A stretch of 64,000 nucleotides of DNA from an uncultured virus (IMG/VR IMGVR_UViG_3300025174_000006) (taxonomy: Duplodnaviria; Heunggongvirae; Uroviricota; Caudoviricetes). The DNA lies in the IMG/VR virus record IMGVR_UViG_3300025174_000006; one strand, written 5' to 3'. A program made the translations under genes and the position numbers. Below the pieces are notes generated by a model. It was not told where the DNA came from, searched no databases, and saw only the letters and a program-made list of their open reading frames with translations. Positions 31,508 through 57,399 of the stretch are shown in pieces (positions within the stretch are counted from its first letter, which is position 1; each line of letters opens with the position of its first letter).

Positions 31508-32620
31508 CTAATTACTTAATGGAAAATGAATTTTTGGATGCGATTTATAATTTTCTAAAGTAATATCTTCTAAGGCATATTCAGAAATGTCATTAACTAT
31601 TTTATCAGATATTTTAACTATTGGTAACTCATATGACTCTCTTAACAATTGTTCATTAACTCCATCAATTTGATTTAAATAAATGTGACAATCACCTAAG
31701 TTTCCTATTATCTCATATGGAATCATACTTACTTGTTTGGCAATCATACTTAAAAGAAGAGAATAGCTGCTGATATTATATGGTAAACCAAGTGCCGTAT
31801 CAATGCTTCTTTGATTCCAACTTAATGAAATTGCTCGTTTCGGAATGTTTTGTTGATCTAATTCAAAATCTTTCCAATTATTTTTCCCACCTTTGTCACT
31901 GCCACCATAACCCAAATTTTTATCAAACCACTTATTTCTTTCTTCTGTGGTTAATTCTCTTGTCCAACATTGGAATCCATAATGACAAGGAGGTAAAACA
32001 CATTTATCTAAAGTTCCTGGATTCCAAGCACTAACCATTAATCTTCTACTATCTGGATTGGCTTTTAAGTCATTTATAAGATTCGATATTTGATCTACGA
32101 AACCAATTTTTGCTTGGATGCCTTTTTCTGTTTTTTCATATTCTGTAAAAGTCCACTTCCTCCATTGTTTACCATAAATTTCGCCTAAATTTCCCCATTT
32201 TTCAGAAAATCCTTCTTCGTTTTTTATTTTATCAATAAATTCTTCTTTTGATTCGTACCTTAATGGAGCTGGATTAAATTCTGGTGAATATTTTTTTGCT
32301 TCTTTGGTGGCATAATCATATAACATTTTCTTTTCTTTTTCAAATGCTTTATATGCGTCCCCATCCCAAATATGACAGTTGTTATCAACTAAATATTTTA
32401 TGTTTGTATCTCCTTTTAAAAACCAAAGTAATTCAGTTACTATTGTTTTAAATGCCATTTTTTTGGTAGTAAGTAAAGGAAAACCGGTAGACAATTTATG
32501 ACGTATTTCTCGACTAAATACACTTAAAGTTCCAGTTCCTGTTCTATCAGATTTTTTAGTACCATTTTCAAGAATATCTTTAAGTAAATTTTGATAATCT
32601 AAATCTAATTTATTTGCCAT
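31508..32620 (-). CDS. thyA: Thymidylate synthase
   Basis: DRTGTGT, FPLLTTK, ELLWFL.G.TN, YG.QWR, SRR, LPPCH, QRS.D..LGLPYN, GDCHIY. Confidence 0.96.
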   Translation of the reverse strand: MANKLDLDYQNLLKDILENGTKKSDRTGTGTLSVFSREIRHKLSTGFPLLTTKKMAFKTIVTELLWFLKGDTNIKYLVDNNCHIWDGDAYKAFEKEKKMLYDYATKEAKKYSPEFNPAPLRYESKEEFIDKIKNEEGFSEKWGNLGEIYGKQWRKWTFTEYEKTEKGIQAKIGFVDQISNLINDLKANPDSRRLMVSAWNPGTLDKCVLPPCHYGFQCWTRELTTEERNKWFDKNLGYGGSDKGGKNNWKDFELDQQNIPKRAISLSWNQRSIDTALGLPYNISSYSLLLSMIAKQVSMIPYEIIGNLGDCHIYLNQIDGVNEQLLRESYELPIVKISDKIVNDISEYALEDITLENYKSHPKIHFPLSN

Positions 32621-32692: not shown

Positions 32693-34090
32693 ATGCCGTC
32701 AAAAAATAAAAAACAGTTAAATTTTTTCTTATTAGTTAAAGCCTATAAAGAATCTGGAGAAAATGGCGTTTTTCGTCAATTAAAACATCTTGAAGGATAT
32801 AAACCAAGACTTACTCCAACTTATATGAACAAGTTGATTAAAACAGCTGAAAGTATTGCTGATTCAGATTTAATAGATATGACTTCTGGAGTAGAAGGAG
32901 AAAACCCATTAGGCGATACAAGAAATTTAAAAGTAGGCTACTGGGCATTATTTACAGGAAAATACAAACCAGCCGGCTCAAAAGATGAAATTCCAAAAGA
33001 AGGAGAATTTATAGCCCAAATAAAAAAAGTAGATAACGCGAAAGGTTTGGTTGAATTTAATCAAAAAGGTTTTAGAAATAAGTATGGAAATACTATTTTC
33101 ATACCAAGAAGAGCTGTGGTCATCAATCAAGAATTTCAATATTTGGATTATGCTTTATTTGACAATGTAATACGTACCGGTAAAAACCCTCAAGAACTTG
33201 CGAAGCCAAAAGAAAATATGGAAGAGTCAATTGAACTTAAAAGCAAATCACATAAGGGCAATAGATTATTTGATATGCTTAAAACTGCAAAGTTTCAACA
33301 TTATGATTCTCCAAAAGGAGAATTATCTACATTAAATCATGGAGAAGAAGATAGAAAAAGAATAGTTTCAAAACTAGGCAAAGCTGATAAAAAAACTTAT
33401 AGAGAATGGATTAAAACTCCAGAAGGAAAAGAATCTTTGGAAAGGTTTGAGGATTTTACATCACCCTTATTTAAAAAGAATAAAATTGAAGAATCAGTAA
33501 GAAAAATGGTAAGGAAGTTGTTGCGAGAAAACTTATCAGGAGAAAATTTGATACCAGATGATATAATTGATAGCTTTTACAATAGAATAAAGAAAATATT
33601 AGACGCTGGAGCTGATAAAAAACATCCCTCAGTAGAACGAGAATTAAACAGAATCAAAATGTTGAATGCAGATGTTATACCTGAAAAGATAAAAGCTCTT
33701 TTAACAGAAGAAATCGAAAATAATAATATTGATTTATCGAATTATAATGGCTGGGAAAAACAATCAGAATGGTTTGGAAATCCTTCATTAGGCTTAGAAA
33801 GTTATAAAAAGATATTTCAAAATCCATTTAACAACAAAATGGTTCCTGTTTTTATATACGGCAAAGAAGGAGAAGGAAAAGATAAACCAATTTTGGGCGG
33901 TACTGATGAAAAAGGAAACAGGGTTTTGTCAGGCGAAAAATTCGATGCTTCAGATTGGCATTTTGTAGTGCATGCCGGAGCTAATAGTCAATATTCTTAT
34001 TCTGGAGGATTTTATCCAGAAACCCCAACTTTAAAACAAGCTATGGATATTGTGGATGAGAAATATAAAAACAAAAAACTTATTCATTAA
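32693..34090 (+). CDS. Hypothetical multidomain late protein
   Basis: 465-aa ORF, TATTTA motif upstream, E-rich linkers. Confidence 0.65.
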   Translation: MPSKNKKQLNFFLLVKAYKESGENGVFRQLKHLEGYKPRLTPTYMNKLIKTAESIADSDLIDMTSGVEGENPLGDTRNLKVGYWALFTGKYKPAGSKDEIPKEGEFIAQIKKVDNAKGLVEFNQKGFRNKYGNTIFIPRRAVVINQEFQYLDYALFDNVIRTGKNPQELAKPKENMEESIELKSKSHKGNRLFDMLKTAKFQHYDSPKGELSTLNHGEEDRKRIVSKLGKADKKTYREWIKTPEGKESLERFEDFTSPLFKKNKIEESVRKMVRKLLRENLSGENLIPDDIIDSFYNRIKKILDAGADKKHPSVERELNRIKMLNADVIPEKIKALLTEEIENNNIDLSNYNGWEKQSEWFGNPSLGLESYKKIFQNPFNNKMVPVFIYGKEGEGKDKPILGGTDEKGNRVLSGEKFDASDWHFVVHAGANSQYSYSGGFYPETPTLKQAMDIVDEKYKNKKLIH

Positions 34091-34237
34091 ATTCTTGTGA
34101 TATTCAATCACATATTTTAATTTTTTCAAAATATATCATGAATCTTTTAAAATTTCATTCGTGAATAAAAATATATTACTTTCAGTATGTTTGCCTTAAA
34201 AGTTTTTTATTGCATATTTATAGTAAACATACTTAAA

Positions 34238-34933
34238 ATGAAAACAGAAACAGAAAAAACAGAAGAGAAACAAAAAATCAAAGAATTGGTTGATAAGGGT
34301 TTAAAAAATAAAGAAATTGGGAAAATATTAGGAATGAAATATCGTACAGTTTGTTTTAAGTTAAGAGAATATAAATTAATTAGATATTCTAAACCGCAAA
34401 TTTCTCAAGAAAAAATAGATGAAATGATTAGATTATATAATGAAGGATATAATTGTACCGAAATTTGTGAAAAAATAAATATAAGTAAAATTACAATTTC
34501 ATTTATACTAAAGGAGAACGGAATCAAAATAGTTAAACGAAGTGCTGATAGTAAACCAGAATTAAGATTATTAAGAGGTGAAAAATGTATAATTTGCGAT
34601 AGAAACCTTGGACCATATGTTACAATATGTAGCACTTGTGTTTCTCAAGTTAGAAGGTATAAAATAAAGAAAAAAATGTTTGATTTTAAAGGTGGCAAAT
34701 GTGAAGATTGTGGAGATGATAGTTTATGTGTGGATATTTATGATTTTCATCATTTAGATCCAGATGAAAAGGATTTTAATTTATCAAAAGTTTTAATAGA
34801 CGGAAAATCTTGGGATGATATAGAAAAAGAATTAAAAAAATGCGCCTTACTCTGTTCTAATTGTCACAGAATTAGACATTCTGTTGAAAGAAAAAGTGAA
34901 AAATTTTGGAAATATATAAAATTAATTTCTTAA
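34238..34933 (+). CDS. HTH plus HNH homing endonuclease
   Basis: GGKCEDCG, DFHHLDP..K.F, E..KC.LLCSNCHR..H. Confidence 0.8.
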   Translation: MKTETEKTEEKQKIKELVDKGLKNKEIGKILGMKYRTVCFKLREYKLIRYSKPQISQEKIDEMIRLYNEGYNCTEICEKINISKITISFILKENGIKIVKRSADSKPELRLLRGEKCIICDRNLGPYVTICSTCVSQVRRYKIKKKMFDFKGGKCEDCGDDSLCVDIYDFHHLDPDEKDFNLSKVLIDGKSWDDIEKELKKCALLCSNCHRIRHSVERKSEKFWKYIKLIS

Positions 34934-34938
34934 AAAGA

Positions 34939-34969
34939 AAAGCTCCAGTAAAACAATTACTGGAGCTTT
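34939..34969. terminator. Bidirectional intrinsic terminator
   Basis: AAAGCTCCAGTAA...TTACTGGAGCTTT between convergent units. Confidence 0.75.
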
Positions 34970-34974
34970 CACTG

Positions 34975-35091
34975 TGTTGATGGGGGGGATCGAACCAACC
35001 CGACTCATTTGCTTTCAGGAAATTGCTCTCACTTACTCCTTGCGAAGTAAAGGATTTGTCTTGCGAAAAACCACCACTGAGCTACATCAAC
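34975..35091 (-). tRNA. tRNA-Phe(GAA)-like gene with a ~40-nt two-hairpin insertion in the D loop
   Basis: Acceptor GTTGATG/CATCAAC, D stem GCTC/GAGC, anticodon loop CTGAAAG, T loop TTCGATC, two GCAA-capped hairpins, no encoded CCA. Confidence 0.75.
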
Positions 35092-35114
35092 ATATTATTA
35101 AAGAACTAATTTTG

Positions 35115-35191
35115 TGTCGATTAGAGACTACAAGTCCTCTCTTTTCTGGTTGTTCACACCAGCACTTTACGTGTACATAAGTTAAATCGAC
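35115..35191 (-). tRNA. Non-canonical tRNA-Phe(GAA)-like gene, copy 1
   Basis: GTCGATT/AATCGAC, TA, ACTT/AAGT, CTGGT-GTGAACA-ACCAG, AGAGG-ACTTGTAG-TCTCT. Confidence 0.75.
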
Positions 35192-35196
35192 ATATG

Positions 35197-35273
35197 TGTT
35201 GGTGAGAGACTACAAATCCGCTCTTATTCGGCTGTTCACACCGATACTTTATATGTGTATAAGTTACACCAAC
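35197..35273 (-). tRNA. Non-canonical tRNA-Phe(GAA)-like gene, copy 2
   Basis: GTTGGTG/CACCAAC, TA, ACTT/AAGT, TCGGT-GTGAACA-GCCGA; compensatory changes relative to copy 1. Confidence 0.75.
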
Positions 35274-35318
35274 ATATTTTATTTAAAAGAACTAAATCGT
35301 TTCAATTATTTAACGATA

Positions 35319-35351
35319 CAAAGATAATAATATTTAAAACTTAAAACCAAA
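35319..35351 (-). promoter_or_regulatory. Bacteroidota-type promoter driving the tRNA-like cluster
   Basis: TATCTTTG at 35319-35326, TTTG at 35348-35351, 21-nt spacer; boxA-like GTTCTTT at 35283-35292 and 35098-35106. Confidence 0.65.
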
Positions 35352-35410
35352 TATTTTATAATAAAAATTTACCTATTTATTAAAAAGTTATTAACAATTC
35401 AAATACTACA

Positions 35411-35950
35411 ATGACTACAGAGGAAAAAAAATTAAGAATAGCTATAAGAAAATCATTAATGGAAATGGAAAACGTTTCTGAAAGCGATATTTTAACAAGA
35501 GCTGGAGTTAACTGGCAAGAGATGAAGCCTAAATTTTTAAAAACAGTTAAATGTCTTGTTTCAAAAATAGATGACGATAAATATAACGATGCAGAAGATT
35601 TAATAGGTAAAGCTATTGGTATGCTTAAAATTTGGAAAGCAAAAATGAAAAAAGGAATAGGAATGGTTGATAGAACTTCGAATACTGAGACGTTGGATGA
35701 AATTGATATTACGGAAACTTTTGGTGGGAAATATGCTCTAGGAACTGGATATAAAAAAGATGAAATTGGCGATAAAAAATATCAAGGAAAACTTATTGAT
35801 TATATTCTTTATAATCAAGGAAGAAACACAGACCAAAGAGAGCCGACTGATAGAAAAATGTATTGCGGATATGATTTAGAACAATTATCTAATAAGGATT
35901 TACAAAAAATAAAGGATAACATGGAACATCCAAGAGGAAGATACTGGTAA
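35411..35950 (+). CDS. Hypothetical late protein
   Basis: 179-aa ORF after CTATTTAT. Confidence 0.6.
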   Translation: MTTEEKKLRIAIRKSLMEMENVSESDILTRAGVNWQEMKPKFLKTVKCLVSKIDDDKYNDAEDLIGKAIGMLKIWKAKMKKGIGMVDRTSNTETLDEIDITETFGGKYALGTGYKKDEIGDKKYQGKLIDYILYNQGRNTDQREPTDRKMYCGYDLEQLSNKDLQKIKDNMEHPRGRYW

Positions 35951-35995
35951 TTAAAGAGTTGCAGTAAAATCCTTCCAATCTTTTTCTGATTTAAT

Positions 35996-36445
35996 CTAAT
36001 CATAATTACATCCAAAAAAGGTTTCATTCGTTAATACATTACTTGTAAGTCCTGCTTCGGAAGTTACAACTACAGAGCTTTGTATTTCTCCTTTAACCCA
36101 CATTTTAAAGATGTTATTATCCTCTTTATATTTATCTCTTTGTGATTTTATATCAAATCCGTAGTCTGCGTGTAGTCCAATAAAAACTCCTTTATTTTGA
36201 TTGCCGATTTTTTCTACCAGCACTTCTGGCTTTACTAAATAATATAAACATTCTAAAGCTTCTTCGCTGTGTGCTGTCGAGGATTTCTTGCTAATAAATC
36301 TTTCATCAAATTTTCCTAATTTAGAAATTAGCTCTTCGACTTTTGACCTGTTGTTTTTAATAACTTTCAGTTCTTCTTCTAAATGAATTGTATTAAAACT
36401 AATACCAAATAGTGTTGTTGTTTCTTCGAATTCTTCAATATCCAT
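35996..36445 (-). CDS. Hypothetical protein
   Basis: 149-aa ORF, TAGATTTG motif upstream. Confidence 0.6.
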   Translation of the reverse strand: MDIEEFEETTTLFGISFNTIHLEEELKVIKNNRSKVEELISKLGKFDERFISKKSSTAHSEEALECLYYLVKPEVLVEKIGNQNKGVFIGLHADYGFDIKSQRDKYKEDNNIFKMWVKGEIQSSVVVTSEAGLTSNVLTNETFFGCNYD

Positions 36446-36482
36446 ATGACAAATCTAATATAAACAAATCTAAAATAAAGAT

Positions 36483-36752
36483 TTAAGAATATTTACCTCT
36501 TCGATTTGCTCTCCTTGGCTTTCTTTCTAATTTTACTGGAGCTTCTTCTGTTTCCTCTATTTGTTCCGGTTCTGGTACCGGTTGTTTTGGAAGTGGCGTT
36601 TGGTCTTGTTTAATAACTTCTGGATTACCTATAGAAGGTGATTGCGTTTGTTGAGGAACAGATTCTCCTCCTTGAGAAGATTGTTCATCTTCGTTGATAA
36701 TTCCTGCCAATTCACGCATTCTTTTTAGCTCTTCTGTAAGATTTTTTTTCAT
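36483..36752 (-). CDS. Small protein with LAG leader
   Basis: MKKNLTEELKRMRELAGIINE. Confidence 0.65.
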   Translation of the reverse strand: MKKNLTEELKRMRELAGIINEDEQSSQGGESVPQQTQSPSIGNPEVIKQDQTPLPKQPVPEPEQIEETEEAPVKLERKPRRANRRGKYS

Positions 36753-36765
36753 TTTACTTAATTTG

Positions 36766-37251
36766 TTATTTTCCTGGTTTTCCAGATTTTATCCACTCAT
36801 CTCTAAGTTTCTCATTTTCTATTCTATTCCAAACTGATTTTTGAATTGCCTGAGATGCTTTTGTTCTAGAATTTGCAGATGCTTCATCTGGATAACGGAC
36901 ACGCCATTGATAAACAAGCTCCTTTGCTACTCCTAAACCTCTGTATTTCTTATCAACAACAAGAGTATTGCCAAAATGATAGCTGGCAATTATTTTATCA
37001 CCATCATATACAACAGCACCATCTTCATTGAATTTCGCTGAATATTTCCCTTTTAAAAATGGTTCTAATTTATCATCTTTTAATGTGGTAAGTTCACTTG
37101 GTTTTAAAAATTTCGCATTAGCGTTTGTTGTTATTGATGGTTTTCCTAAAAATTGGTCTTTTGTTAAATCATATACAGATGAAAACTTAGCTTCATTAAT
37201 TCCTGCCAATTCACGCATTCTTTTAATTTCTTCTGTGAGATTTTTTTTCAT
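36766..37251 (-). CDS. GNAT-like acetyltransferase with LAG leader
   Basis: VVDKKYRGLGVAKELV acetyl-CoA motif A; leader nearly identical to the neighbour. Confidence 0.7.
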   Translation of the reverse strand: MKKNLTEEIKRMRELAGINEAKFSSVYDLTKDQFLGKPSITTNANAKFLKPSELTTLKDDKLEPFLKGKYSAKFNEDGAVVYDGDKIIASYHFGNTLVVDKKYRGLGVAKELVYQWRVRYPDEASANSRTKASQAIQKSVWNRIENEKLRDEWIKSGKPGK

Positions 37252-37265
37252 ATATCATAAATAGC

Positions 37266-38171
37266 TTACAATATATATCTATTCATTAGATTAGTTAAAC
37301 TTGGATGGTGTTGCGTTATTATTTCCCAGTTTTTTTTAGATAAAGATTCGAAATCGCAATGCTTTGAGTATTTATCTGGATTGTGTATTAATAACGTTTC
37401 CCATCCCAATGCAGAGATTTTATATTTATTTTCTTCTATTAAGTAATCTAAATGTGGAAATAATTGAACAATTTTTATAAGCAAAAAACAATCTCCTATT
37501 TGAAAAATGGATAAATCACAATGTTTTAAGAGTTCTGGTTTAGTAGTTAATATTTCTACCCAATCCAAAGCTTTTAATTTTTTTAAATCTAATTTATGTA
37601 TATATTTTTCTCCGCTTTTTTTAATTAAAACCCTAACAGCATAATGGTCAAGCGTTTCTAAATTCAATTTTTCTATTATTTCCGGAGTTTTATGGAAAGA
37701 TTCAATTATTTTTCCAATTTCATGTTTAGAATACGTGTATTTACCCAAATCTATCTTTGGTAAGAAGCTAATGTTTATCTCGAGCATTTTTATAGCATCT
37801 ATGGCCGACAAATTTTCATAATCCAAATCAAAGTATTCAATCATGTCCGGATGTACTATAAATATAGGAATAAGGTCTCTAAGAGTAAAATCATGCTTAT
37901 TTAAATCCAATCGTTCAAGAATATATTTATCCCTTACAATTAGTCTGATAAGCTTCATTTTATCTAATTTATCCCATTCGATAATATCTTTTATTCTTTC
38001 GTTTTTTAATAATGATTTATCATCTATAAAGTTGGGATTGATGAATTTCGATAACACTTTAAATATAGGTTCCGGCAAAATCCTGTAATCTATTAACGCA
38101 GCATAATGACATATTGCTTTTTTGATAATTTCTCGTTTACTTTGTATGTCAGGAATTTTAACTGAACTCAT
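37266..38171 (-). CDS. Helical repeat protein
   Basis: Repeated L....W..IL...P units; likely start MSSVK. Confidence 0.6.
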   Translation of the reverse strand: MSSVKIPDIQSKREIIKKAICHYAALIDYRILPEPIFKVLSKFINPNFIDDKSLLKNERIKDIIEWDKLDKMKLIRLIVRDKYILERLDLNKHDFTLRDLIPIFIVHPDMIEYFDLDYENLSAIDAIKMLEINISFLPKIDLGKYTYSKHEIGKIIESFHKTPEIIEKLNLETLDHYAVRVLIKKSGEKYIHKLDLKKLKALDWVEILTTKPELLKHCDLSIFQIGDCFLLIKIVQLFPHLDYLIEENKYKISALGWETLLIHNPDKYSKHCDFESLSKKNWEIITQHHPSLTNLMNRYIL

Positions 38172-38206
38172 ATATACAAATATGAATAAAGAATTATATA
38201 AAGTAA

Positions 38207-38638
38207 ATGTTTGAAATGGCTGAAGAAAAATTTGATACATCAGGAAGACTAATCAAACATATTGAACCGGTTACTGGAATAATATATGAATACGAATATT
38301 TAGAAGATAGCTCAAGAATAATTACAATTACAAATGAAAGTAATAAATCAAATTTTAAGACTATAAAAAAACAAAAATTCGAAGATGGAAATTATATTGA
38401 TGTGGAGGCTAATGAATTTGGAGATACATACAATATTTTAAAGAGATTTAATAAAGACAATAAAGAAAATTATTATGAACGGACAAATATAAAAACAGGA
38501 AAAATATTTAAGAAAAAAAGCATCTGGAAAGAAGGAAAAGTATACCTTTGGACAACAGAATATGATGGAGAAACGAAAAAAATAGGTTTCCGAATGACAC
38601 AAAATATAATTACAGGACTTACAAACAATAATGTATAA
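38207..38638 (+). CDS. Hypothetical protein
   Basis: 143-aa ORF. Confidence 0.55.
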   Translation: MFEMAEEKFDTSGRLIKHIEPVTGIIYEYEYLEDSSRIITITNESNKSNFKTIKKQKFEDGNYIDVEANEFGDTYNILKRFNKDNKENYYERTNIKTGKIFKKKSIWKEGKVYLWTTEYDGETKKIGFRMTQNIITGLTNNNV

Positions 38639-38877
38639 TGGAAGAAAACACAATCAAAACAGAAAAAAAAGAAGATTCAGTATTTGAGATAGATTCTTTA
38701 GTAGCTGAAACTTATAATGAAATTGTAAAATGGCACAATGAAGAACCAACCAAAGAGGGATTAAAGCAATTATCATTAGAAATTGTTGAGAAAATTGCCG
38801 GAGCTACTTTAAGCCACGTTGGTTTAAAAGGGAATCTTTCTATTTTTAAAGGAGAAGAGGCAAAGAAGGCAAAATAA
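38638..38877 (+). CDS. Hypothetical protein
   Basis: 79-aa ORF coupled to the previous gene. Confidence 0.55.
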   Translation: MEENTIKTEKKEDSVFEIDSLVAETYNEIVKWHNEEPTKEGLKQLSLEIVEKIAGATLSHVGLKGNLSIFKGEEAKKAK

Positions 38878-39669
38878 TTATTTCTTAAACAATCCAACTA
38901 ACAAATTGTAGGATAGTCCGACGCCAATGTACGGTCCAAAAGTTAAATTTTGTTTACCATAAACGATTCCATATCCAAGTTGTGCACTGAGTGAAAAATT
39001 GTTTTGTTTTTCAGGATTTAAAATGGCTCCCTCTAATTTTCCCACATGTACATTGGGATTTTTGGGAGTAACAAAAATCTCCTTAAACCCTGTCTTTTTA
39101 TTTTTAGCAACACCAACGACAAAATCCATCCTCAATTCATCTTGTAAAATACTAGTGGTTCCAGGCAAAATATCCAAAGTATATGTTTTGTTATCACCGA
39201 ATATATTTGCTTTTGCATTAAAAGAGCTTTTTCCTTTTAGTATTCTGGAGCTATCTGCATTTATAAAATCCCAATTAAGGTCATAATTTCCATTTCCTTT
39301 ATCAGAAAGTAAATTTTTAGAAGTAATAGTATCTCCAACATAAATGACTTGAGTTTTAATTATAATCTCCGGCCTTCTATTTTTAAGGTCTTTAATTTCC
39401 TTTGCTAAATCTTCGCTGTATTTTTGAATATCTTTTACTTTTCCTTCAAAAGCAACAATAGAAGTTTGATAAAAACCACTTTTATTTTTTTCTATAGTCA
39501 ATTCATTCTTTGATGCCTCTGCATTTTGAATAGCAAGTGCTTTTTGTTCTTTTAAATCACCACAAGATTTAAAATTCAGTAATATTAAAATTACTACCGC
39601 TGCAGTTAATATGAATATAAACAAATTTTTATTTGCAAATAATTTACTAAATAAATCTAATATTTTCAT
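38878..39669 (-). CDS. Membrane-anchored protein with coiled coil and C-terminal beta-hairpin (possible spanin-like lysis protein)
   Basis: N-terminal TM, coiled coil, GYG...GPYIGVGLSYN tail. Confidence 0.55.
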   Translation of the reverse strand: MKILDLFSKLFANKNLFIFILTAAVVILILLNFKSCGDLKEQKALAIQNAEASKNELTIEKNKSGFYQTSIVAFEGKVKDIQKYSEDLAKEIKDLKNRRPEIIIKTQVIYVGDTITSKNLLSDKGNGNYDLNWDFINADSSRILKGKSSFNAKANIFGDNKTYTLDILPGTTSILQDELRMDFVVGVAKNKKTGFKEIFVTPKNPNVHVGKLEGAILNPEKQNNFSLSAQLGYGIVYGKQNLTFGPYIGVGLSYNLLVGLFKK

Positions 39670-42251
39670 TGTTTTTTTGTTTTTAATTTATATGCCTCAA
39701 GTAGTTTTTTTGATATTATTTTTCTAATAACATAACTTTCTTTCATTAAAACTTTTCCAAATTCTTCCCATTTAAATGCTTTAATTTCAAGCCAATCAGT
39801 TGTTTTTTTATTACCACCCATAACTTTTATTCTTGAATTAGCAATTCCGTTTATGATTTCGGGGTCAACATCCATTATGCTGTATTTATATCCTTTTTGT
39901 AATGCAAAATATCTACTGTCATTTTCTTTAACATCTCTGTCTAAGAATTCAACGAAATCACCAACTTCAATATTATATTTAGAGCTTGAGAATCCACTTA
40001 TTAATTTTTCATATTCACCAAATCCAATTCTCGAGATAATTTCATCTCTGTTGATTACAATATCTTCTTTGGATTTTTCTTTAGATGTAAAATCAGTTAA
40101 AAAATCATAATATTTTCTATAAACAACTAAAGAAATATTTGAAGTATTTCCTTTAAAAGATTTTAAAGAAGTTGGTTTGTATTTTTTTATAAATTCTTCT
40201 ATTTTTTCTTTGCTCTCACCAGCAATTTCTAACATTGTAACATAATCTTTCAATACTGTATATAGCATGTCTGGACTATCTGCAGAATAAGATTCTGGCT
40301 TATCTACTTTATAAAGTTTGGCGAAAAAATTAATAATAATTTTTGCTACTTGAGGGTCTCTTATATCTTCTAAATCAAATTTAATATAAGGTTTATCTGC
40401 CTCTTCTTTTCCGTACTTAGTAAGAATTCCTCTATTAAACATTCTATAGAATTCAAATATCCCAGGAAGATGAACGCCTCTTAAAATATTATATTTAGTA
40501 ACATGAGACGGGTCATCATAATATCTTATAAATCTTTCTTTTTCAGCCTTTAAATTTCTTTGTATTTCTTGAGGATTTGATTCCTTAAATAAAAGTCTTA
40601 AAAAATTTATTTCTTTTCTTTCTGAATCTCCTTCAATTTTTGATTTTATAAATTCTTCATTTTTTTTAAGTAAATCTCTTCTTTCTTTTTGAGGTAATAA
40701 AGAAAGTTGGTCACCCAATTCAAATTCAGCATCAGATTCAGTTCTTGTTCCATCTGGAGCTACTTTTACATCTTTTTTCTGTGCTATGATTTTTCCTTCC
40801 GGAGTCTTTCTTAAAAATTTATGTTTATCAGATTTTGGCATTTCTAAAAAACTCATCATTTTGTTGATACCAACAGTTCCTCCACCAAACGCATCAGACA
40901 TAACTGGGAAATAATTATCTAATATAGATTTAAAAATTTCTTTATATGATTTAGCTTCTTTAGAATTAACATTAGAAAGTTTCTTTAACAATTTTTCAAA
41001 ATCATCTTTCTTTGTTGTAATATAATTTTGTAAATTAACATGCTCAAACATTTTTTTAAAATCTTCTGCAGGTAAAAAATCTAATAAAAAATTAACTTTA
41101 GAAAGAATTAAATTTGGTTTTCTCTTTGATAGTTCGGGTATATGAATAGAGAGCTCTTGAAGTGATTGATTAAATGTTATTGATTTAGAGTAACTATCAA
41201 TATTTTCAATGAATTTCTCTGGACCAAATTTCTTTAATGCTTCCAATGCATCTAAACTTCTGTTTTCGAACCATTCTTTTCCTTCTTTATTCGATATTAT
41301 ATATGGTTTACTATTTTCTACAAAATCTGGCCTTAACAAATCCAATCTATTAAAAATATCAAATTTTTTATTATCAAATGCCCAAGAAAAAGTATATGAG
41401 TCAGTTGTTTTCTCTATTGTTTGTTTTGCAACTGGAGTCCCTAAAAATTCAACTAATTTTTCAAACAAGTCATCCCATCCATAGAGATTGGTTCCAACCG
41501 GTTGATTTCCAACTTGCTTACTTTCAACCATAATTTTTGTAGTAGTAACTATAGATAAAGACATTAATGTACTAATTGGAACTTTTGTTCCTTTTTCCGG
41601 TCCAAGTAAAGTATAAGTAGTTCTGCTATATTTTCTATGTTCATCATGCATCATACCATTATGCTTGCTTTGGCAGCCAACTCCAAAAGCTTTATTTGCA
41701 TCGCAGAGTCTGTCAAAAAATTCACCCGCTCTTTGCGTATCAACTTTTACCCAAACACGACCTGAGCCGTCCGGTATTGTGTAAACTCTTTTAACAAGAC
41801 CTTCTTCTTCAACTTTTGTTATGGGTGGTTCTGGAAATTCTTCTGCGGTCTTTTGAGAAATTTCTTTTTTATTTTTTTCTTCTATTTTTTTCTTTGAAAA
41901 TTCGTAAGCTGTATTTAAGTCCATTTTTGGTAAATTACCTTCACTTCCGGCAATTTTAAACCAGGACATAACTGTGACCAATTTTTCTATATCTCCTGTT
42001 CCAAAATTCTCAATACCTCCCAAAACAGTAATTTGTTCAATAATCCACTTTACCATTTTTTTATTAATGACAGCTACATTTTGTTCGCCACCAAACGCTC
42101 TGAAATATATATGTTCTACAAAATCAAGAATTCTTTCATCGGTTTTAGGCAATCCTTTAGCTCCAATTAAAAAATCTTTTTTCCAGTCAGCACTAACTTC
42201 TGTAATTAATCCACACTCAATAAGAAATGGTTTTATGCTTGGTTTTTTCAT
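39666..42251 (-). CDS. Large hypothetical late protein
   Basis: 861-aa ORF, TATTTAT upstream. Confidence 0.7.
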   Translation of the reverse strand: MKKPSIKPFLIECGLITEVSADWKKDFLIGAKGLPKTDERILDFVEHIYFRAFGGEQNVAVINKKMVKWIIEQITVLGGIENFGTGDIEKLVTVMSWFKIAGSEGNLPKMDLNTAYEFSKKKIEEKNKKEISQKTAEEFPEPPITKVEEEGLVKRVYTIPDGSGRVWVKVDTQRAGEFFDRLCDANKAFGVGCQSKHNGMMHDEHRKYSRTTYTLLGPEKGTKVPISTLMSLSIVTTTKIMVESKQVGNQPVGTNLYGWDDLFEKLVEFLGTPVAKQTIEKTTDSYTFSWAFDNKKFDIFNRLDLLRPDFVENSKPYIISNKEGKEWFENRSLDALEALKKFGPEKFIENIDSYSKSITFNQSLQELSIHIPELSKRKPNLILSKVNFLLDFLPAEDFKKMFEHVNLQNYITTKKDDFEKLLKKLSNVNSKEAKSYKEIFKSILDNYFPVMSDAFGGGTVGINKMMSFLEMPKSDKHKFLRKTPEGKIIAQKKDVKVAPDGTRTESDAEFELGDQLSLLPQKERRDLLKKNEEFIKSKIEGDSERKEINFLRLLFKESNPQEIQRNLKAEKERFIRYYDDPSHVTKYNILRGVHLPGIFEFYRMFNRGILTKYGKEEADKPYIKFDLEDIRDPQVAKIIINFFAKLYKVDKPESYSADSPDMLYTVLKDYVTMLEIAGESKEKIEEFIKKYKPTSLKSFKGNTSNISLVVYRKYYDFLTDFTSKEKSKEDIVINRDEIISRIGFGEYEKLISGFSSSKYNIEVGDFVEFLDRDVKENDSRYFALQKGYKYSIMDVDPEIINGIANSRIKVMGGNKKTTDWLEIKAFKWEEFGKVLMKESYVIRKIISKKLLEAYKLKTKKQ

Positions 42252-42297
42252 TTAAATAAAATGCTTTTCAGATAAATAGGTAAAAAAAGGATATTAT

Positions 42298-43812
42298 CTA
42301 TAAAAATCCTTCGGTGGTAGCCCACCTATATTGTTCTGCAGTTAGGAAATTAGGAACTTTTTCTAAACCCTTTTTATTAGCTATCTTTGAAATGTAATAA
42401 TTTTTCAAATCTTTTGAAAGCAAGTTAAAAAATCTATTAGGCATAAACGTATAAAAGTTATCTAAATATTTGTTTATGTAAAGTTTCTTTTCTCGTTCGT
42501 CAAGTTCGCTGAATTGTTCTGGTTCAATAAGATGAACTTTGTTTTTCAAGAGTCCTTTACGATAACGTTCTTTTTGTTCTGGCGTAGCCATTTCATATGC
42601 CCAAGAAGGTAGTTTTTTGCCAGAATTTGACATTTGTTCAATGTAATAGGCCACTAACTTAGGGTCAGAGTCTAAAGCAACTGAATGAGGTAGTTCTCCA
42701 CCTTTCTTTACTATATCTTTATAGTAGTAAACCTTTAGTCTGTTTTCTGCATTTTTAAAATAATAAGAAGGTAATGAGGTTGAGCTATATTTAGATAATT
42801 TTTTTTCTATAGCTTTTTGACGTTCCTCCGGTTCCATTAACAATAAATATTTTTCAGCAATAGTCCATCCATTCTCAGCGAATATTTTTATTTGCAATTC
42901 TCTTAGTCCGGGTATTGTGTCAATTATTGTTTCTGGTATTTTTAATCCTTTTCTAATACGTTCTTCAAGTGCCGGCATAAATCTTTGAATAGCTTCTGGA
43001 TTTCTTTCTGCAATAGCTCCAAGTAATGAAAGCGCAGTATCACTTAAATCTTGACTTGTGGATAAATATTTTGCAATAGCTTCATTTAATGCATCAGCGA
43101 TACTTGGATTATTTTTGAAAAATTCTCCGACATCTATCTGACTATCATTCATGTTCATGAATTGATTCGACTCAAAATGAAACTGATATCTTCTTGTCGC
43201 ATCATCTTGATTTAATTTCAATTTGTCTATAATGATGTATAATGGACCGTCTTTTGTGTAATGTTCGTAATTATCAGGAAATCTCGTGCACCATTGACTA
43301 GTACATGCATAGAATTTCGAAGACTCGTAAGATTTAGGAACAACAACCATCCATCTTCTGTTTTCGAAAAATAATTCTGCTTGACCGTTATTTATAAAAA
43401 ATCTATCAGTTAAAAGATATGATTCATCATCTTTAACTTGACCGGTTCCTCCAAATCTTGAATTAAGAATAAATAACTCTGGAAGTGAACTTATTTTACC
43501 AATATCCTTAGCATTTTCTGGAAGAATATTTTGTTTTTTAAGCTCATTATACATAATGAGATATTCCTTTGCTTTATATAAATCTTCTTTTCTTAATTTC
43601 CCTTTTTTGTGAAGAGAAAGTAACCACTTTGAATATTGTCCTAACTTATCTGGAATTCCTTTTTTTATAGGAGTTGTAGGGTCTGCTTTTATAATGTCGT
43701 AAAAAAAATCGAGACGAATATCTACATAGTACTTTTCGTATATGTCAGACACTTTTGACTCAGAGAGAATTCCAGCCAATTCCTGCAGTCTTTTTTTGAG
43801 TTTGTCGTCCAT
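42298..43812 (-). CDS. LAG-leader protein, paralog of 18154-19719
   Basis: ADPT, YSKWLL, EDLYK, VVPK....S..Y....QWCT, PLYIIID, QFHFESNQFM. Confidence 0.7.
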   Translation of the reverse strand: MDDKLKKRLQELAGILSESKVSDIYEKYYVDIRLDFFYDIIKADPTTPIKKGIPDKLGQYSKWLLSLHKKGKLRKEDLYKAKEYLIMYNELKKQNILPENAKDIGKISSLPELFILNSRFGGTGQVKDDESYLLTDRFFINNGQAELFFENRRWMVVVPKSYESSKFYACTSQWCTRFPDNYEHYTKDGPLYIIIDKLKLNQDDATRRYQFHFESNQFMNMNDSQIDVGEFFKNNPSIADALNEAIAKYLSTSQDLSDTALSLLGAIAERNPEAIQRFMPALEERIRKGLKIPETIIDTIPGLRELQIKIFAENGWTIAEKYLLLMEPEERQKAIEKKLSKYSSTSLPSYYFKNAENRLKVYYYKDIVKKGGELPHSVALDSDPKLVAYYIEQMSNSGKKLPSWAYEMATPEQKERYRKGLLKNKVHLIEPEQFSELDEREKKLYINKYLDNFYTFMPNRFFNLLSKDLKNYYISKIANKKGLEKVPNFLTAEQYRWATTEGFL

Positions 43813-43838
43813 TTCTTTTAAATAGGAAATTAAAGAGG

Positions 43839-43862
43839 AAAGTCAGGAAAAATCCTGACTTT
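43839..43862 (-). terminator. Intrinsic terminator hairpin
   Basis: AAAGTCAGGA...TCCTGACTTT. Confidence 0.6.
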
Positions 43863-43921
43863 TAACTTGATTTTTGTTGAATATTATCGTGCAACTTTCG
43901 AAAAATTCATTTTGTTTATCC

Positions 43922-44191
43922 TTATTTTCTCAATTTATAACCTTCCATAAAACTATCCCTACTTTTACCTGTATGTCCCCAATGTGATTTATCATTTTTA
44001 TTGTTAGTAAAAAATTGCCAAGTAACTATTTCATCCCCTAATCCATTTGATTCAATTAAATGTTTAACAATCTTAATTGAGTATTTTCGGTTAGGGTTAT
44101 CATATATACCAATGGGATATTTTTTTGATATAATTTCCAATTCTTTTTTTAGTTTACTATCCATAATATTTTTTGGTTTCCTATACACCAT
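43922..44191 (-). CDS. Hypothetical protein
   Basis: 89-aa ORF. Confidence 0.45.
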   Translation of the reverse strand: MVYRKPKNIMDSKLKKELEIISKKYPIGIYDNPNRKYSIKIVKHLIESNGLGDEIVTWQFFTNNKNDKSHWGHTGKSRDSFMEGYKLRK

Positions 44192-44270
44192 AAGGTTTTA
44201 ACTTATAATTATAAAATTTACGAATTAAAATCCTGTCGAATTTTTTAATACTGCGCTTAGCCGATATACA

Positions 44271-45305
44271 TTATCTAATTTCAACATTAAGACGCTCAAT
44301 TGAGGTGAATTTTATATTTTCTTGGATTTCATTTATTTCTGTATTTGTTAAAGTGCGATCATTTGATTGAAAAACTATTCTATAACACTTAGATTGTTTA
44401 CCTGTTTTTGGGTGAGCAAATTCATCTATTAATGAAACATTTTCTATTAAATCGCCTCCATTTTCTCTCACAATTTCACAAAAATTATTATGAGCGAAAT
44501 TAGTATCTGCCCAAAATGCCAAATCTCTGGATATTGGTGGATAACTTGAGTATTCCTTAAATTTAACTACATCTCCAGAAATAAATTGATTTATAAATCT
44601 TTCATCAGACGACCAAAAGTAACGTATGTCTGGTATTTCAAATAAGAGGATAGACAATCTTTCCAAACCTAATCCAAAAGCAAATGCAGCTTTATTTTCT
44701 AAACCACAATTTTCCATAATTTTAGGTTGAACAACCCCTGCACCAAGAACCTCTAACCATTTTCCCTGAAACATAACTTCAACTTCAAAAGATGGATGTG
44801 TAAAAGGAAAATAATCTTCATTGAAGCGGTATTCACAATTTGGAAAAAGAACATCAATAAGACCTTTTAATGTTTTTTTAAGTTCTTCTTCTGCGTTTTT
44901 TCCATCTTCAATTACACATACACCTTCCATTTGGTGAAAAACCGGATAATGAGAGCTGTCAATATCATCTTTCCGATACACATCACCTGTAACTAAAAAT
45001 TTTGTATGACCAGCAGTTAATAATTCATTTTGGTGAGCCGATGTATGGGTTCGTAATATATGATTCTCATCAAAATAATAAGTATCACTCAATGAACGTG
45101 CAGGATGATCTTTTGGAATAAGTAGTTTATCAAAACAATTTTCAGTTGTAACCTTTGGATTTAAATCATCAAATTTTTTATATTCATCTCCAAAGTAATC
45201 ATAGATTTTTCTTTTAATAATTTCTAAAGGATGATTTTTTTGATTGTGTAAATTTCTGCCAATTTTAGCTTGGATTCCGGGGGTAATGTTTGATTTAAAT
45301 TCCAT
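44271..45305 (-). CDS. Monomeric mitochondrial-type phenylalanyl-tRNA synthetase (catalytic domain plus FDX-ACB anticodon-binding domain)
   Basis: HPARS.SDTYY, LRTHTSAHQ, GDVYR.D.ID..HYPVFHQMEG, YFPFTHPS, AFGLGLERL, YPPISRDLAFW, SKCYRI..Q..DRTLT..EIN. Confidence 0.92.
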   Translation of the reverse strand: MEFKSNITPGIQAKIGRNLHNQKNHPLEIIKRKIYDYFGDEYKKFDDLNPKVTTENCFDKLLIPKDHPARSLSDTYYFDENHILRTHTSAHQNELLTAGHTKFLVTGDVYRKDDIDSSHYPVFHQMEGVCVIEDGKNAEEELKKTLKGLIDVLFPNCEYRFNEDYFPFTHPSFEVEVMFQGKWLEVLGAGVVQPKIMENCGLENKAAFAFGLGLERLSILLFEIPDIRYFWSSDERFINQFISGDVVKFKEYSSYPPISRDLAFWADTNFAHNNFCEIVRENGGDLIENVSLIDEFAHPKTGKQSKCYRIVFQSNDRTLTNTEINEIQENIKFTSIERLNVEIR

Positions 45306-45392
45306 AAAATAATTGTTTAATTGTTTTTTGTACAAATTTATAAAAATAATATTAATTAACAATATATTAAACGGAAATCTTTTTAGAATGTT

Positions 45393-46061
45393 TTAATCAA
45401 ATTTCATATTCATTAGTTCTAACAATTCCTTGTCCATACTGTCAGAATATCCTGAGCTAAAAATGGCAAATTCCGTTATTAATTTTAAATATTTTGGAGA
45501 CGGTTCTCCATTTGCCTTGCCCTTAGTCTGAATTGCCATTCCGGTATGAGTATCAATCTCAATTGTTACATGCGACTCATTCTTTTCGTCTCGTAAAGAA
45601 ACTATTAACGAATTGCCTTGTTTCACTTTGGTAGTATATGTTCCTACGCAGTTTCTCATTGTTTCGCCTTCTGTTGCTAAATCTTCCACGTCCAAAAGAA
45701 CAAAATAATGTATTCCATCACGGCATCTATATAATATTTTATCATCCTCTTCTTTTTCTTTATTTTTAATAGTTTCATCAAATTTCATGTCGTCATGCCA
45801 TACTTGTGCCAGTACATAAGCCTCCAAAAAAGATAAAGATAAGATATTTGGCTTTTCTTTTTTTGCCCAATCTATTATAAATAAAAATCCATCAAGATTA
45901 TTCAGAAGAGTATCATCTTTCTTTACTTGACCTCCAATCCAAATATTAAATTTGTCAGTTCCGGATAAACGTCCGATTTCACTTATTTTTCTAACAAGCT
46001 CCTCATCAATTTTGAAGTTATCTAAGAGATATTTTTCTTTCTTTGTTAATTGCTCTGCCAT
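45393..46061 (-). CDS. PcfJ-domain protein
   Basis: DL..EG..M.NCVG.Y, SLRD.....HVTIE, Q.KGKAN. Confidence 0.75.
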   Translation of the reverse strand: MAEQLTKKEKYLLDNFKIDEELVRKISEIGRLSGTDKFNIWIGGQVKKDDTLLNNLDGFLFIIDWAKKEKPNILSLSFLEAYVLAQVWHDDMKFDETIKNKEKEEDDKILYRCRDGIHYFVLLDVEDLATEGETMRNCVGTYTTKVKQGNSLIVSLRDEKNESHVTIEIDTHTGMAIQTKGKANGEPSPKYLKLITEFAIFSSGYSDSMDKELLELMNMKFD

Positions 46062-46064
46062 AAT

Positions 46065-46781
46065 CTATTTCTTAATGTAATTCAAAATTTGCTTAGCACA
46101 ATCCTCAACATTAAATTTTTGTGTATCAACAATAATCTCTGGGTTTAATGGAATTTCATAAGGTGCTGTATCGTGCACTCCTGTAAAATCCTTTATCTCC
46201 CCACTCCTCGCCTTTGCATACAACCCTTTAACGTCTCTTTGTTCACAAATACTCAAAGGTGTATTGACATATATTTCAGTAAAATCCTTACTTATACTCC
46301 TTACATAATCTCTTGCTTCAGCATATGGAGAAATAAGACTTACGACAGGTATTATACCTTGACTTTGTAAATAAACTGCCATTTTTCCAACATCTTGATT
46401 GTGTCTTATTCTTGCAGCTTTATCAAAGCCATAATTTTTAAATATTTCTCTGATTTCATCTCCATCCAAAAGCATGGCGGCATGACCACCTTCTTTCAGA
46501 CGAGTTAAAACTTCTTTTGCTATCGTTGTTTTTCCAGAACATGAGAGCCCGGTAAAAAATAACATGCTCGTTCTATATTTTTTCTTTGTAAGTTTATCCC
46601 ACACAATATCAAACCAATAATATGTAAGTATTTTTACAATATTTTCCACAAGGCCAAGCATTATGGAGAGTTTTATGTTTCCAGTAAGAAGAAAAGAAAC
46701 AACAAATGTTACAACAAAAGAATAAATTCTGTAAATTACAGATTTTGTCATGTGTTTTATGTTAATTATTTTCCTTAGCAT
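46065..46781 (-). CDS. cysC: Adenylylsulfate kinase with N-terminal DUF2061-like membrane segment
   Basis: FTGLSCSGKTT, LDGD.IR, ISPY, C..RDVKGLY.KAR.GEI..FTG. Confidence 0.92.
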   Translation of the reverse strand: MLRKIINIKHMTKSVIYRIYSFVVTFVVSFLLTGNIKLSIMLGLVENIVKILTYYWFDIVWDKLTKKKYRTSMLFFTGLSCSGKTTIAKEVLTRLKEGGHAAMLLDGDEIREIFKNYGFDKAARIRHNQDVGKMAVYLQSQGIIPVVSLISPYAEARDYVRSISKDFTEIYVNTPLSICEQRDVKGLYAKARSGEIKDFTGVHDTAPYEIPLNPEIIVDTQKFNVEDCAKQILNYIKK

Positions 46782-56481: not shown

Positions 56482-57399
56482 ATGCGTAAATTCAACATTA
56501 TCGGAGGCATGCCTAGATGTGGCACAACTTTAGCTGGACAAATTTTAAATTCTAATCCGAATTTTCATGTGACACCAACTTCTTCAATTTTGGATTCATT
56601 AAAGAATATAAGAAGCACATTTAGTCACAACCCAACTTGGAAGGCTCAAGATAGATTAAAGCTTATGCCAAATATTAGAGCTTCTATGAAGGGGTTTTTA
56701 AATGGATTTTTTGAAAATGAAAATGTTGTGTTTGACAAAAACAGAGGTTGGTCAAATAATATTTCTTTATTAGATGATGTTCTTGGAAATAATGACACAA
56801 AAATAATCTGGTTTTATAGAAATCCTGTTGAAATTATTTCTTCCATAGAAAGCCAACACAACAAGACAATACTTTTAGAAAACACTGATGAAGCTACTAT
56901 TCCAGGAATGTTTATGTCGCTCGACCGGCGCATAGGAACGTATACAAATGAAGATGGATTAGTTGGACACCCAGTTGCCACATTGAAAGACGCGATTGAG
57001 ATGGGATATCTTTCAAGAATTTTATTTGTAAAATACTATGATTTAACTAATAACACACAATTTGTTATGAACGCTATTCATCAATTTATAGGAGAAGATT
57101 TCTATGAATATGATTTAAAAAATGTTAAACAAACAACATATGAATTTGACGGGACTTATAATTATAAATTTCCACACACAATAAAAGAAGGAGAGATAAA
57201 ATGGAAAAAAGCAGATATGACTCTTCCTATGAAATATATACAAGCAATAAATGAAAGATTTTCCACTCTTAATAAATTAATTTTTGAAGGTGATGTATCT
57301 GAATTTGCTGGAGAAGAATTTTCTTCACATCAATTAAATATTGTTATGCCACCAACACAACAAAATTCGGTTATAGAACAAAATCCTTTTCAAATATAA
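56482..57399 (+). CDS. PAPS-dependent sulfotransferase family protein
   Basis: GGMPRCGTTL 5'-PSB loop, DKNR.W, RNPVEIISS 3'-PB motif, VKY.DL. Confidence 0.85.
   Translation: MRKFNIIGGMPRCGTTLAGQILNSNPNFHVTPTSSILDSLKNIRSTFSHNPTWKAQDRLKLMPNIRASMKGFLNGFFENENVVFDKNRGWSNNISLLDDVLGNNDTKIIWFYRNPVEIISSIESQHNKTILLENTDEATIPGMFMSLDRRIGTYTNEDGLVGHPVATLKDAIEMGYLSRILFVKYYDLTNNTQFVMNAIHQFIGEDFYEYDLKNVKQTTYEFDGTYNYKFPHTIKEGEIKWKKADMTLPMKYIQAINERFSTLNKLIFEGDVSEFAGEEFSSHQLNIVMPPTQQNSVIEQNPFQI

Follow-up and report, generated by a model that had tools for sequence, protein, structure and literature searches.

Human FARS2 (PDB entries 3CMQ, 3TUP, and 8P8X) is a phenylalanyl-tRNA synthetase (PheRS) of the type called 'PheRS-M' in AARS Online (PMC11580382), in which a class II catalytic core and a C-terminal ferredoxin-fold anticodon-binding (FDX-ACB) domain form one chain without a beta subunit or an editing domain. 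One-chain enzymes also occur in giant viruses, where the PheRSs of nucleocytoviruses group with organellar and bacterial sequences and probably have a mitochondrial-like biochemistry (Mol Biol Evol 2024, PMC11304981); the word 'phage' occurs 0 times in the text of that paper. Huge phages possess up to 15 aminoacyl-tRNA synthetases (aaRS) and 67 tRNAs per genome and were suggested to aminoacylate tRNA variants that they encode themselves; at least seven of their coding sequences match the model TIGR00469 with 137-378 bits (Supplementary Table 5A), and the supplementary data include a PheRS tree with eukaryotic references (Al-Shayeb et al. 2020, PMC7162821). The one-chain type, deviant or insertion-bearing tRNA-Phe genes, and their linkage to the enzyme are not discussed in the parts of that article at hand, and a literature search of titles and abstracts found no paper on one-chain PheRS in phages. 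Here we describe a stretch of 64,000 nucleotides (the window) from an uncultured virus (IMG/VR record IMGVR_UViG_3300025174_000006), which contains a single-chain PheRS gene of the PheRS-M or pheS_mito type (44271..45305, minus strand) and, 9 kb away, three deviant tRNA-Phe(GAA)-like genes. The enzyme type is already known from giant viruses and from the huge-phage supplement, and the link to the tRNA genes is the interesting part.

The PheRS gene codes for 344 amino acids plus a stop codon and starts with the ATG at 45305 within an open reading frame (ORF) that is open over 44271..45362 (minus strand). According to Pfam, the chain is composed of a class II PheRS catalytic core (PF01409, tRNA-synt_2d, 3.1e-59; residues 16-241, 44583..45260, minus strand) fused to an FDX-ACB domain (PF03147, 4.3e-23; residues 253-344, 44274..44549, minus strand), the latter also matching the C-terminal end of PheT models (TIGR00472 positions 694-798); neither a B3_4 or editing domain nor a beta subunit is predicted on it. 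The B3_4 domain of PheT (PF03483) was likewise not found in the virus record from which the window derives (G000), in its complete relative G002, or in G003 and G006, the control being positive in 14 of 14 genomes. The protein reaches 378 bits with TIGR00469 (pheS_mito equivalog; cut-off 258.35), but stays below the cut-offs of the bacterial PheS alpha model TIGR00468 (196.3 bits, cut-off 237.45) and of NF051887, the model for the 'PheS-related mystery ligase' SrmL (251.6 bits, cut-off 300). Human mitochondrial PheRS aligns with it over its full length (E 3e-103), the best solved relatives are the human mitochondrial entries 8P8X and 3CMQ (E about 1e-103), and the motifs HYPVFHQMEG, YFPFTHPSFE, and AFAFGLGLERL are aligned with the human enzyme and occupy invariant columns in a 40-sequence alignment. 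A model calculated with AlphaFold2 (AF2) from 40 homologs has a mean pLDDT of 95.8 and its top PDB match in Foldseek is 3CMQ (TMq 0.92, 44% identity); since the tRNA-bound open form 3TUP matches less well (TMq 0.69), the model represents the closed form. The ratio dN/dS is 0.11-0.21 against four relatives, with dS being saturated, and the identical 344-amino-acid protein is present on 14 contigs, the longest of which has 503,412 bp. Integrity of the gene, family, fold, and purifying selection are established, and the single-chain, FARS2-type nature of the protein, which an earlier note on this DNA had recognized from the letters, was confirmed in this way. These features are best explained by a functional one-chain PheRS of the mitochondrial type, with an activity that is predicted from the sequence, and the protein probably works as a monomer.

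Besides being of phage origin, whereas FARS2 is encoded in the eukaryotic nucleus, the window PheRS differs from the human enzyme by the lack of a presequence (the alignment begins at human residue 27), by the lack of the human insert around residues 165-189, by its length (344 versus 415 amino acids), and by its position outside the eukaryotic clade. Its one-chain homolog in Tupanvirus soda lake shows 60% identity, but there the carrier is a giant virus rather than a tailed phage, and the sequences of the nucleocytoplasmic large DNA viruses (NCLDV) form a separate clade. SrmL, on which a literature search found no paper, equals the window PheRS in length and in its two-domain layout, is 50-57% identical to it between residues 5 and 344, and is found in Bacteroidota, the phylum of the probable phage host. 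Among 25 one-chain PheRS-like loci in bacterial genomes, all 12 of the Bacteroidota homologs tested are SrmL by NCBIfam and score higher with the SrmL than with the pheS_mito model, in contrast to the window PheRS, for which the reverse is true; homologs in metagenome-assembled genomes of a Nitrospiraceae and a Berkiella member score as pheS_mito. The earlier note's statement that typical bacteria use an (alpha-beta)2 enzyme requires a qualification, in that Bacteroidota chromosomes carry SrmL, a sister family with one chain. Carriers of SrmL include Elizabethkingia, Chryseobacterium, Sphingobacterium, Pedobacter, Myroides, and others (L035-L054), and two copies are present in Sphingobacterium tabacisoli.

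The family as a whole is large: 6,897 of 8,000 scored candidates match the window PheRS at E<=0.001, the best 120 matches all combine PF01409 and PF03147, and 588 matches at E<=1e-30 were obtained in a cluster-representative library. No close relative was found among GenBank phage records, where none of 18 matching records spans at least 80% of the protein. The main tree comprised 49 rows (LG+G4) with a single PheS outgroup on a long branch (2.5); P0124, P0122, L018, P0015, L029, L031, L028, L034, L036, and L047 were left out of it, and the partial loci L016 and L032 are in none of the three trees calculated. SrmL stands apart from every viral and organellar sequence (support 95/100), the organellar PheRSs of eukaryotes form one clade (97/95) that does not include the window sequence, the giant-virus PheRSs form their own clade (99/98), and the window PheRS groups with P0002, L013, and P0025 (99/89). 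A polytomy connects these groups at the backbone, with a similar result in all three trees, and no direction of transfer among phages, giant viruses, bacteria, and organelles emerges from them. The comparison with FARS2, giant-virus, and bacterial enzymes proposed in the earlier note has yielded separate groups, with the window sequence outside the eukaryotes, but not the relationships between them. A one-chain PheRS family distributed over mitochondria, giant viruses, megaphages, and SrmL bears on the origin of the mitochondrial enzyme.

The window corresponds to bases 105060-169059 of G000, a virus record of 212,632 bp. Since the closest named homolog of the PheRS is that of Tupanvirus, a giant-virus origin was tested. 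The NCLDV major capsid protein (PF04451) and VLTF3 (PF04947) were not found in G000 by profile search, whereas PF04451 matched in three giant-virus records carrying related PheRS genes. A Pfam scan of 147 ORFs of G000 found no structural genes; it revealed sigma-70, peptide deformylase, a peptidoglycan-binding amidase, integrase, GP88, DnaB, and ribonucleotide reductase. A collinear relative, with a DNA identity of about 70% to G000, is G002, which has 518,809 bp and direct terminal repeats and is rated as complete; in this record Pfam, applied to 102 of the 136 ORFs of at least 290 amino acids, identified a Gp23 capsid, T4 portal, terminase, tail sheath, and T4 baseplate protein. An origin of the contig from a giant virus or a eukaryote is ruled out by the lack of NCLDV capsid and VLTF3, the bacterial-type genes, and the collinear T4-like megaphage, and a chimeric contig by the collinearity with the complete G002. 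G000 thus represents part of a T4-like megaphage genome of about 0.5 Mb and is not chimeric, so that the phage origin assumed in the earlier note stands and the chimera named there as a possible objection does not. Identical small contigs from four other runs cover 29-30 of 30 bins of the stretch 34000-46500, none of them spanning the whole of it. G002 also encodes a type IX secretion system sorting domain, a TonB-dependent receptor, and OmpA, which together indicate a Bacteroidota host; the host of the megaphage is thus probably a member of this phylum.

The three tRNA-Phe(GAA)-like genes, designated w1, w2, and w3, are located on the minus strand in a 478-bp gap (34934-35410), and the nearest end of the cluster is 8,998 nt from the stop codon of the PheRS gene. 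ARAGORN detected 0 tRNAs in the window, and Rfam found none there either at the gathering score or at E<=10. With the covariance model R1, scores of 62.1 bits were obtained for w3 (35197..35273, minus strand), of 62.7 bits for its tandem copy w2 (35115..35191, minus strand), and of 44.4 bits for w1 (34975..35091, minus strand), whose alignment shows two insertions. The genes w2 and w3 share 77% identity, their acceptor and anticodon stems differing by compensatory changes, and have the anticodon loop GUGAACA (U33, GAA, and C37, hence no purine at position 37), a D loop without GG, and a T loop without TTC. In w1 the D stem and T loop are canonical and the anticodon loop is CUGAAAG, but the D loop holds an insertion of about 44 nt and the T stem a 2-nt bulge after the third pair (GGG[UU]GG/CCCCC). 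All three end in A73 followed by C. When w2 and w3 were aligned with 11 GAA-type genes of G000, G001, G002, and G003 (13 in total), 90.1% of the cells of the cloverleaf were paired and 19 of 21 pairs had changes on both sides; none of 500 shuffles scored as high, slid controls gave 38-50%, GAA (34-36) was invariant, and A73 was present in 13 of 13 genes. Single-sequence folding of w1-w3 is weak (z -1.1 to -2.1), and the case for them therefore rests on covariation. They exist (cluster 34975-35273, minus strand) as tRNA-like genes with a covariation-supported cloverleaf, in agreement with the three deviant GAA tRNAs that the earlier note had placed 9 kb from the synthetase.

Directly after w1, an intrinsic-terminator-like hairpin of 14 pairs followed by a T run is present (34938..34970, minus strand; 1 site versus 0.3 expected), and a similar hairpin and T run follow the tRNA cluster of G002. 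About 41-46 nt upstream of w3, the sequence TATCTTTGTATCG (35314..35326, minus strand) contains a TAnnTTTG-type motif, which has 1 match in the window with 0.04 expected; the same word precedes the tRNA clusters in L013, L014, and L012. We take TAnnTTTG to be the Bacteroidota-type -7 promoter consensus, and the motif in the window is a candidate element only.

In order to see how the enzyme and the tRNA genes are distributed, 42 viral one-chain PheRS loci were compared with the window (43 loci in total). By tblastn with 24 window proteins, the gene order around PheRS is common to L012, L013, L014, L016, and L017, and the other loci share PheRS alone, with the exception of weak PcfJ-like or 504-aa-like matches in L144 and L148. 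A deviant GAA cluster is located 5-9 kb downstream of PheRS in the window and in each of the four syntenic loci with sufficient sequence on that side, the contig of L016 stopping inside the PheRS gene, short of this distance. The cluster of L013 consists of three genes in the order w3, w2, w1, the third one having a w1-like D-loop insertion and T-stem bulge; that of L014 also contains three genes, in one of which about 45 nt are inserted within the T stem; that of L012 is cut by the contig end after two genes; and L017 contains one deviant gene, whose T stem has about 23 extra nt at the same position. Outside this family, L153, part of the 208-kb record G026, which encodes a T4-type terminase, shares only PheRS with the window and has, about 8.3 kb from PheRS, a tandem pair of deviant GAA-type genes, both missed by ARAGORN. 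Position 37 is a U in these genes, their D and T arms are aberrant, and the T stem again contains a bulge (GGG[A]GG/CCCCC). The ordinary tRNA-Phe of G026 belongs to the main tRNA array, at a distance of about 12 kb across the record ends should the genome be circular, and in both G026 and G002 the canonical tRNA-Phe is found in the main tRNA array and the most deviant copies near PheRS. The link between PheRS and the deviant tRNA genes is thus genuine for one phage family and reappears in a single case beyond it.

Further GAA-type genes are distributed over the megaphage genomes. For G000, ARAGORN reports 18 tRNAs including three tRNA-Phe(GAA), two of which have C33 instead of U33, and R1 adds w1-w3 and an insertion-bearing GAA gene at 72638-72735, giving a total of seven GAA-type genes; as four of these seven are missed by ARAGORN, its tRNA counts for huge phages are underestimates. 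G002 has eight GAA-type genes, of which ARAGORN sees five (two with 8-nt loops) and only R1 the other three; among them is the w1 ortholog el3, in which the D-loop insertion and the T-stem bulge recur together with a covarying pair. Near-canonical tRNA-Phe genes are present in both genomes, the one of G000 being located at 185012-185089. GAA-type genes with otherwise canonical arms but without U33 are located at 73045-73119 and 85424-85497 of G000 (L006:13045-13119 and L007:10424-10497) and at 4818-4892 and 17799-17873 of G002 (L064). The loops of such genes are CCGAAAA and UCGAAAG, the 8-nt loop of G002 is CAAGAAAA, interpreted by ARAGORN as having the 4-base anticodon 'agaa', and a C31-A39 mismatch occurs in many GAA-type genes.

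Insertions of 20-70 nt were observed in megaphage tRNA-like genes at three places, namely the D loop, the 5' strand of the T stem after the third pair, and the anticodon loop. Insertion-bearing genes, which are missed by ARAGORN and Rfam, are found in the window at 34975-35091 (minus strand) and at L006:12638-12735 (minus strand), L013:18251-18348, L064:18245-18342, L014:17358-17478, L017:16066-16162, L073:11249-11352 (minus strand), L085:10875-10971, and L153:16076-16221. An archaeal-type splicing endonuclease (PF01974) was not found in G000, G002, G003, G006, and G007, the control being positive in four archaea; RtcB and an RNA ligase are encoded in G002, whose tRNA-like genes carry insertions. 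Other phages with a PheRS-M contain suppressor-type tRNAs (CTA/TTA), located at L144:19471-19558 and L154:1547-1637 and, with two CTA and one TTA, in G013, which hints at stop-codon recoding in these lineages; G000 and G002 showed no such sign.

With respect to function, we consider it probable, if by no means assured, that the phage PheRS supplies its own Phe-tRNA-Phe and that its preferred clients are the phage tRNA-Phe(GAA) species including the deviant cluster. By homology, the N-terminal class II core would form Phe-AMP and transfer phenylalanine to A76, and the fused C-terminal ferredoxin-fold domain would read the GAA anticodon. The infected cell would obtain a phage-owned supply of Phe-tRNA-Phe as part of a large translation kit, and the most likely preferred clients would be encoded by the phage tRNA-Phe(GAA) genes, the cluster 9 kb downstream among them. 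The deviant clients would be those with lost D/T elbow signals, with a pyrimidine at position 37, or with D-loop or T-stem insertions, and such tRNAs may be poor substrates for a host enzyme of the (alpha-beta)2 type. That the PheRS serves the neighbouring deviant tRNA-Phe genes is plausible; which tRNAs it charges, and any orthogonality, we infer from gene content and homology, and the semi-orthogonal charging system put forward in the earlier note would be purely conjectural.

A stronger version of this proposal, which we regard as tentative and rather unlikely, is that the phage owns a natural charging pair, partly orthogonal and made up of PheRS and the deviant tRNA-Phe(GAA) encoded nearby, that keeps the decoding of UUY codons under phage control when the phenylalanine arm of the host is shut off or attacked. 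The tRNAs would have lost features that are read by the host (alpha-beta)2 PheRS, by modification enzymes, and possibly by a tRNA-Phe-directed defence nuclease, and the elbow-independent mitochondrial-type enzyme would still charge them; the D-loop and T-stem insertions of 20-45 nt would be either tolerated extra arms or a new small phage tRNA intron. Phage tRNAs that escape host anticodon nucleases by altered anticodon loops are known; several phage copies of one tRNA species have changes at positions 32, 33, 37, and 38, with the anticodon kept. The w1-w3 type differs from these in that the D and T arms are altered as well and in that a synthetase gene is linked. We know of no nuclease that targets tRNA-Phe, although no search for one was made. 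If the pair exists, a PheRS tolerating misshapen tRNAs together with its linked tRNAs, whose genes escape standard detectors, would be a natural orthogonal pair in a bacterial setting, of interest for genetic-code engineering, and would illustrate how translation in the largest phages is kept independent of the host.

Several observations weigh against a dedicated relationship between the enzyme and the deviant tRNAs. No deviant GAA gene is present within 10 kb of PheRS in 37 of the 43 loci, and no Phe-type tRNA at all in 36 of the 43; in L021 the sole gene of this type is an ordinary tRNA-Phe, called by ARAGORN, within an array of 12 tRNAs, and G007 has a single ordinary tRNA-Phe about 100 kb from PheRS, and G013 a tRNA-Phe(GAA) and a tRNA-Phe(AAA) about 58 kb from it. 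The six positive loci amount to about two independent groups, since five of them are syntenic relatives and count as roughly one observation, and the polytomy in the backbone of the PheRS tree means that there may have been just one ancestral PheRS-tRNA module. GAA-type genes without U33 or with 8-nt loops may, moreover, fail to decode. G002 contains, in addition to 51 ARAGORN tRNAs, nine further aaRS-like ORFs, comprising a MetRS-like protein, several class I I/L/M/V pieces, an ArgRS-like protein, a class II protein of the D/K/N type, a class IIb core, and two GluRS/GlnRS-like proteins, so that phenylalanine is not singled out and PheRS is part of a broad translation kit. The co-occurrence of enzyme and odd tRNAs, which the earlier note had proposed to examine across jumbo phages, was found in the window, L012, L013, L014, L017, and the non-syntenic L153/G026, so that on this point, as on that of a chimera, the outcome was in favour of the note; the deviant cluster is not a general companion of the one-chain PheRS. 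These facts fit an additional PheRS of the ordinary kind, which charges the tRNA-Phe of the host and the canonical one of the phage, lies near the odd tRNAs by inherited synteny, and has one chain only because a single gene is the sole form of PheRS that works after one horizontal transfer. Consistent with such an enzyme, the same type is encoded in giant viruses and in many unrelated phage groups without a nearby tRNA-Phe, near-canonical tRNA-Phe is available in both G000 and G002, huge phages have up to 15 aaRS each (Al-Shayeb et al. 2020), and G002 also encodes RtcB, an RNA ligase, an HD-kinase protein, DnaJ, ClpB, and a deformylase. It accounts less well for the deviant tandem pair about 8 kb from PheRS in the non-syntenic G026, or for G006, where only four tRNA-like genes were found in 222 kb, a single one of them, the deviant tRNA-Phe beside PheRS, being of the Phe type. 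As the chance of placement within 10 kb is, from site counts, roughly 0.1-0.15 per genome, two independent cases are suggestive, no more; we consider the general-purpose enzyme a substantial possibility, yet still doubtful.

Another possibility is that w1-w3 are decaying pseudogenes or decoys, for example bait for a host anticodon nuclease, that are never charged and have nothing to do with PheRS. Their rejection by ARAGORN and Rfam, the weak single-sequence folding, C37, the lost D- and T-loop signatures, the 44-nt D-loop insertion, the bulged T stem, and the existence of related GAA-type genes without U33 are in line with decay; however, across genomes with a DNA identity of only about 70% the stems are maintained by compensatory changes, GAA and A73 never vary, the insertion and bulge of w1 are kept in its G002 ortholog, and the cluster is flanked by a terminator and a promoter-like motif of its own. 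These observations speak against decay and are compatible with a decoy role; we consider the reading as a whole quite improbable. More improbable still is a PheS-related ligase with another substrate, in the manner of SrmL, or an enzyme that feeds a non-ribosomal use of Phe-tRNA through a neighbour such as PcfJ. The 50-57% identity to Bacteroidota homologs filed as SrmL and the 251.6 bits with the SrmL model point in this direction, but the SrmL cut-off is missed and that of pheS_mito reached, SrmL is separated from the viral and organellar sequences in the tree, and the catalytic and Phe-pocket motifs align with the human enzyme. A PcfJ-domain gene (Pfam, 1e-15) does lie directly upstream of PheRS on the same strand (45393..46061, minus strand), as the earlier note had reported, and occupies this place also in L012, L013, L014, L016, and L017; the suggestion that its product is an aminoacyl acceptor or transferase partner nevertheless found no support beyond this conserved synteny. 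PcfJ domains are present in four scattered ORFs of G000 (window 29295-31313, 45393-46061, and 57403-59514, and L010:9722-10456, all on the minus strand), two of which are about 700 amino acids long, and G002 has at least one PcfJ more. The Atlas gave just 'PcfJ-like' clusters, with no tie of the upstream protein to aminoacyl chemistry, and an L/F-transferase was not found in G000, G002, G003, and G006.

Three of the class I ORFs (I/L/M/V type) of G002, L069:13426-14700, L081:2290-3642, and L073:13906-15873, have only 424-655 amino acids and match the catalytic profiles partially; they may represent split, truncated, or intron-interrupted synthetase genes. Downstream of PheRS, a gene for a protein of 861 amino acids is kept in all four syntenic loci that reach there (L012, L013, L014, and L017); it belongs to no Pfam or PHROG family, and its Atlas matches all have a score of at most 0.85 and a TM of at most 0.30. 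Genes that possibly form a sulfation set are found at window 46065-46781 (minus strand), window 56482-57399 (plus strand), and L011:4519-5370 (minus strand), the products being an APS kinase whose N-terminus carries a DUF2061 membrane segment, a sulfotransferase, and a protein resembling PAPS reductase; among the loci compared, the APS kinase is common only to the window and L013. A 223-amino-acid ORF (window 20446-21117, plus strand) is matched weakly, and only in part, by the Terminase_6N profile (22.5 bits, positions 6-116) and is far from the position of the true terminase in the collinear G002. The thymidylate synthase of 370 amino acids (window 31508-32620, minus strand) is matched by Pfam over residues 8-368 compared with only 264 profile positions, from which it follows that about 100 extra residues are inserted in this protein. 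Just left of the window, an ORF of 373 amino acids (L008:13628-14749, minus strand; 103628-104749 of G000) matches Thiol_cytolysin in Pfam (3.3e-35), a cholesterol-dependent-cytolysin-like fold in a phage genome.

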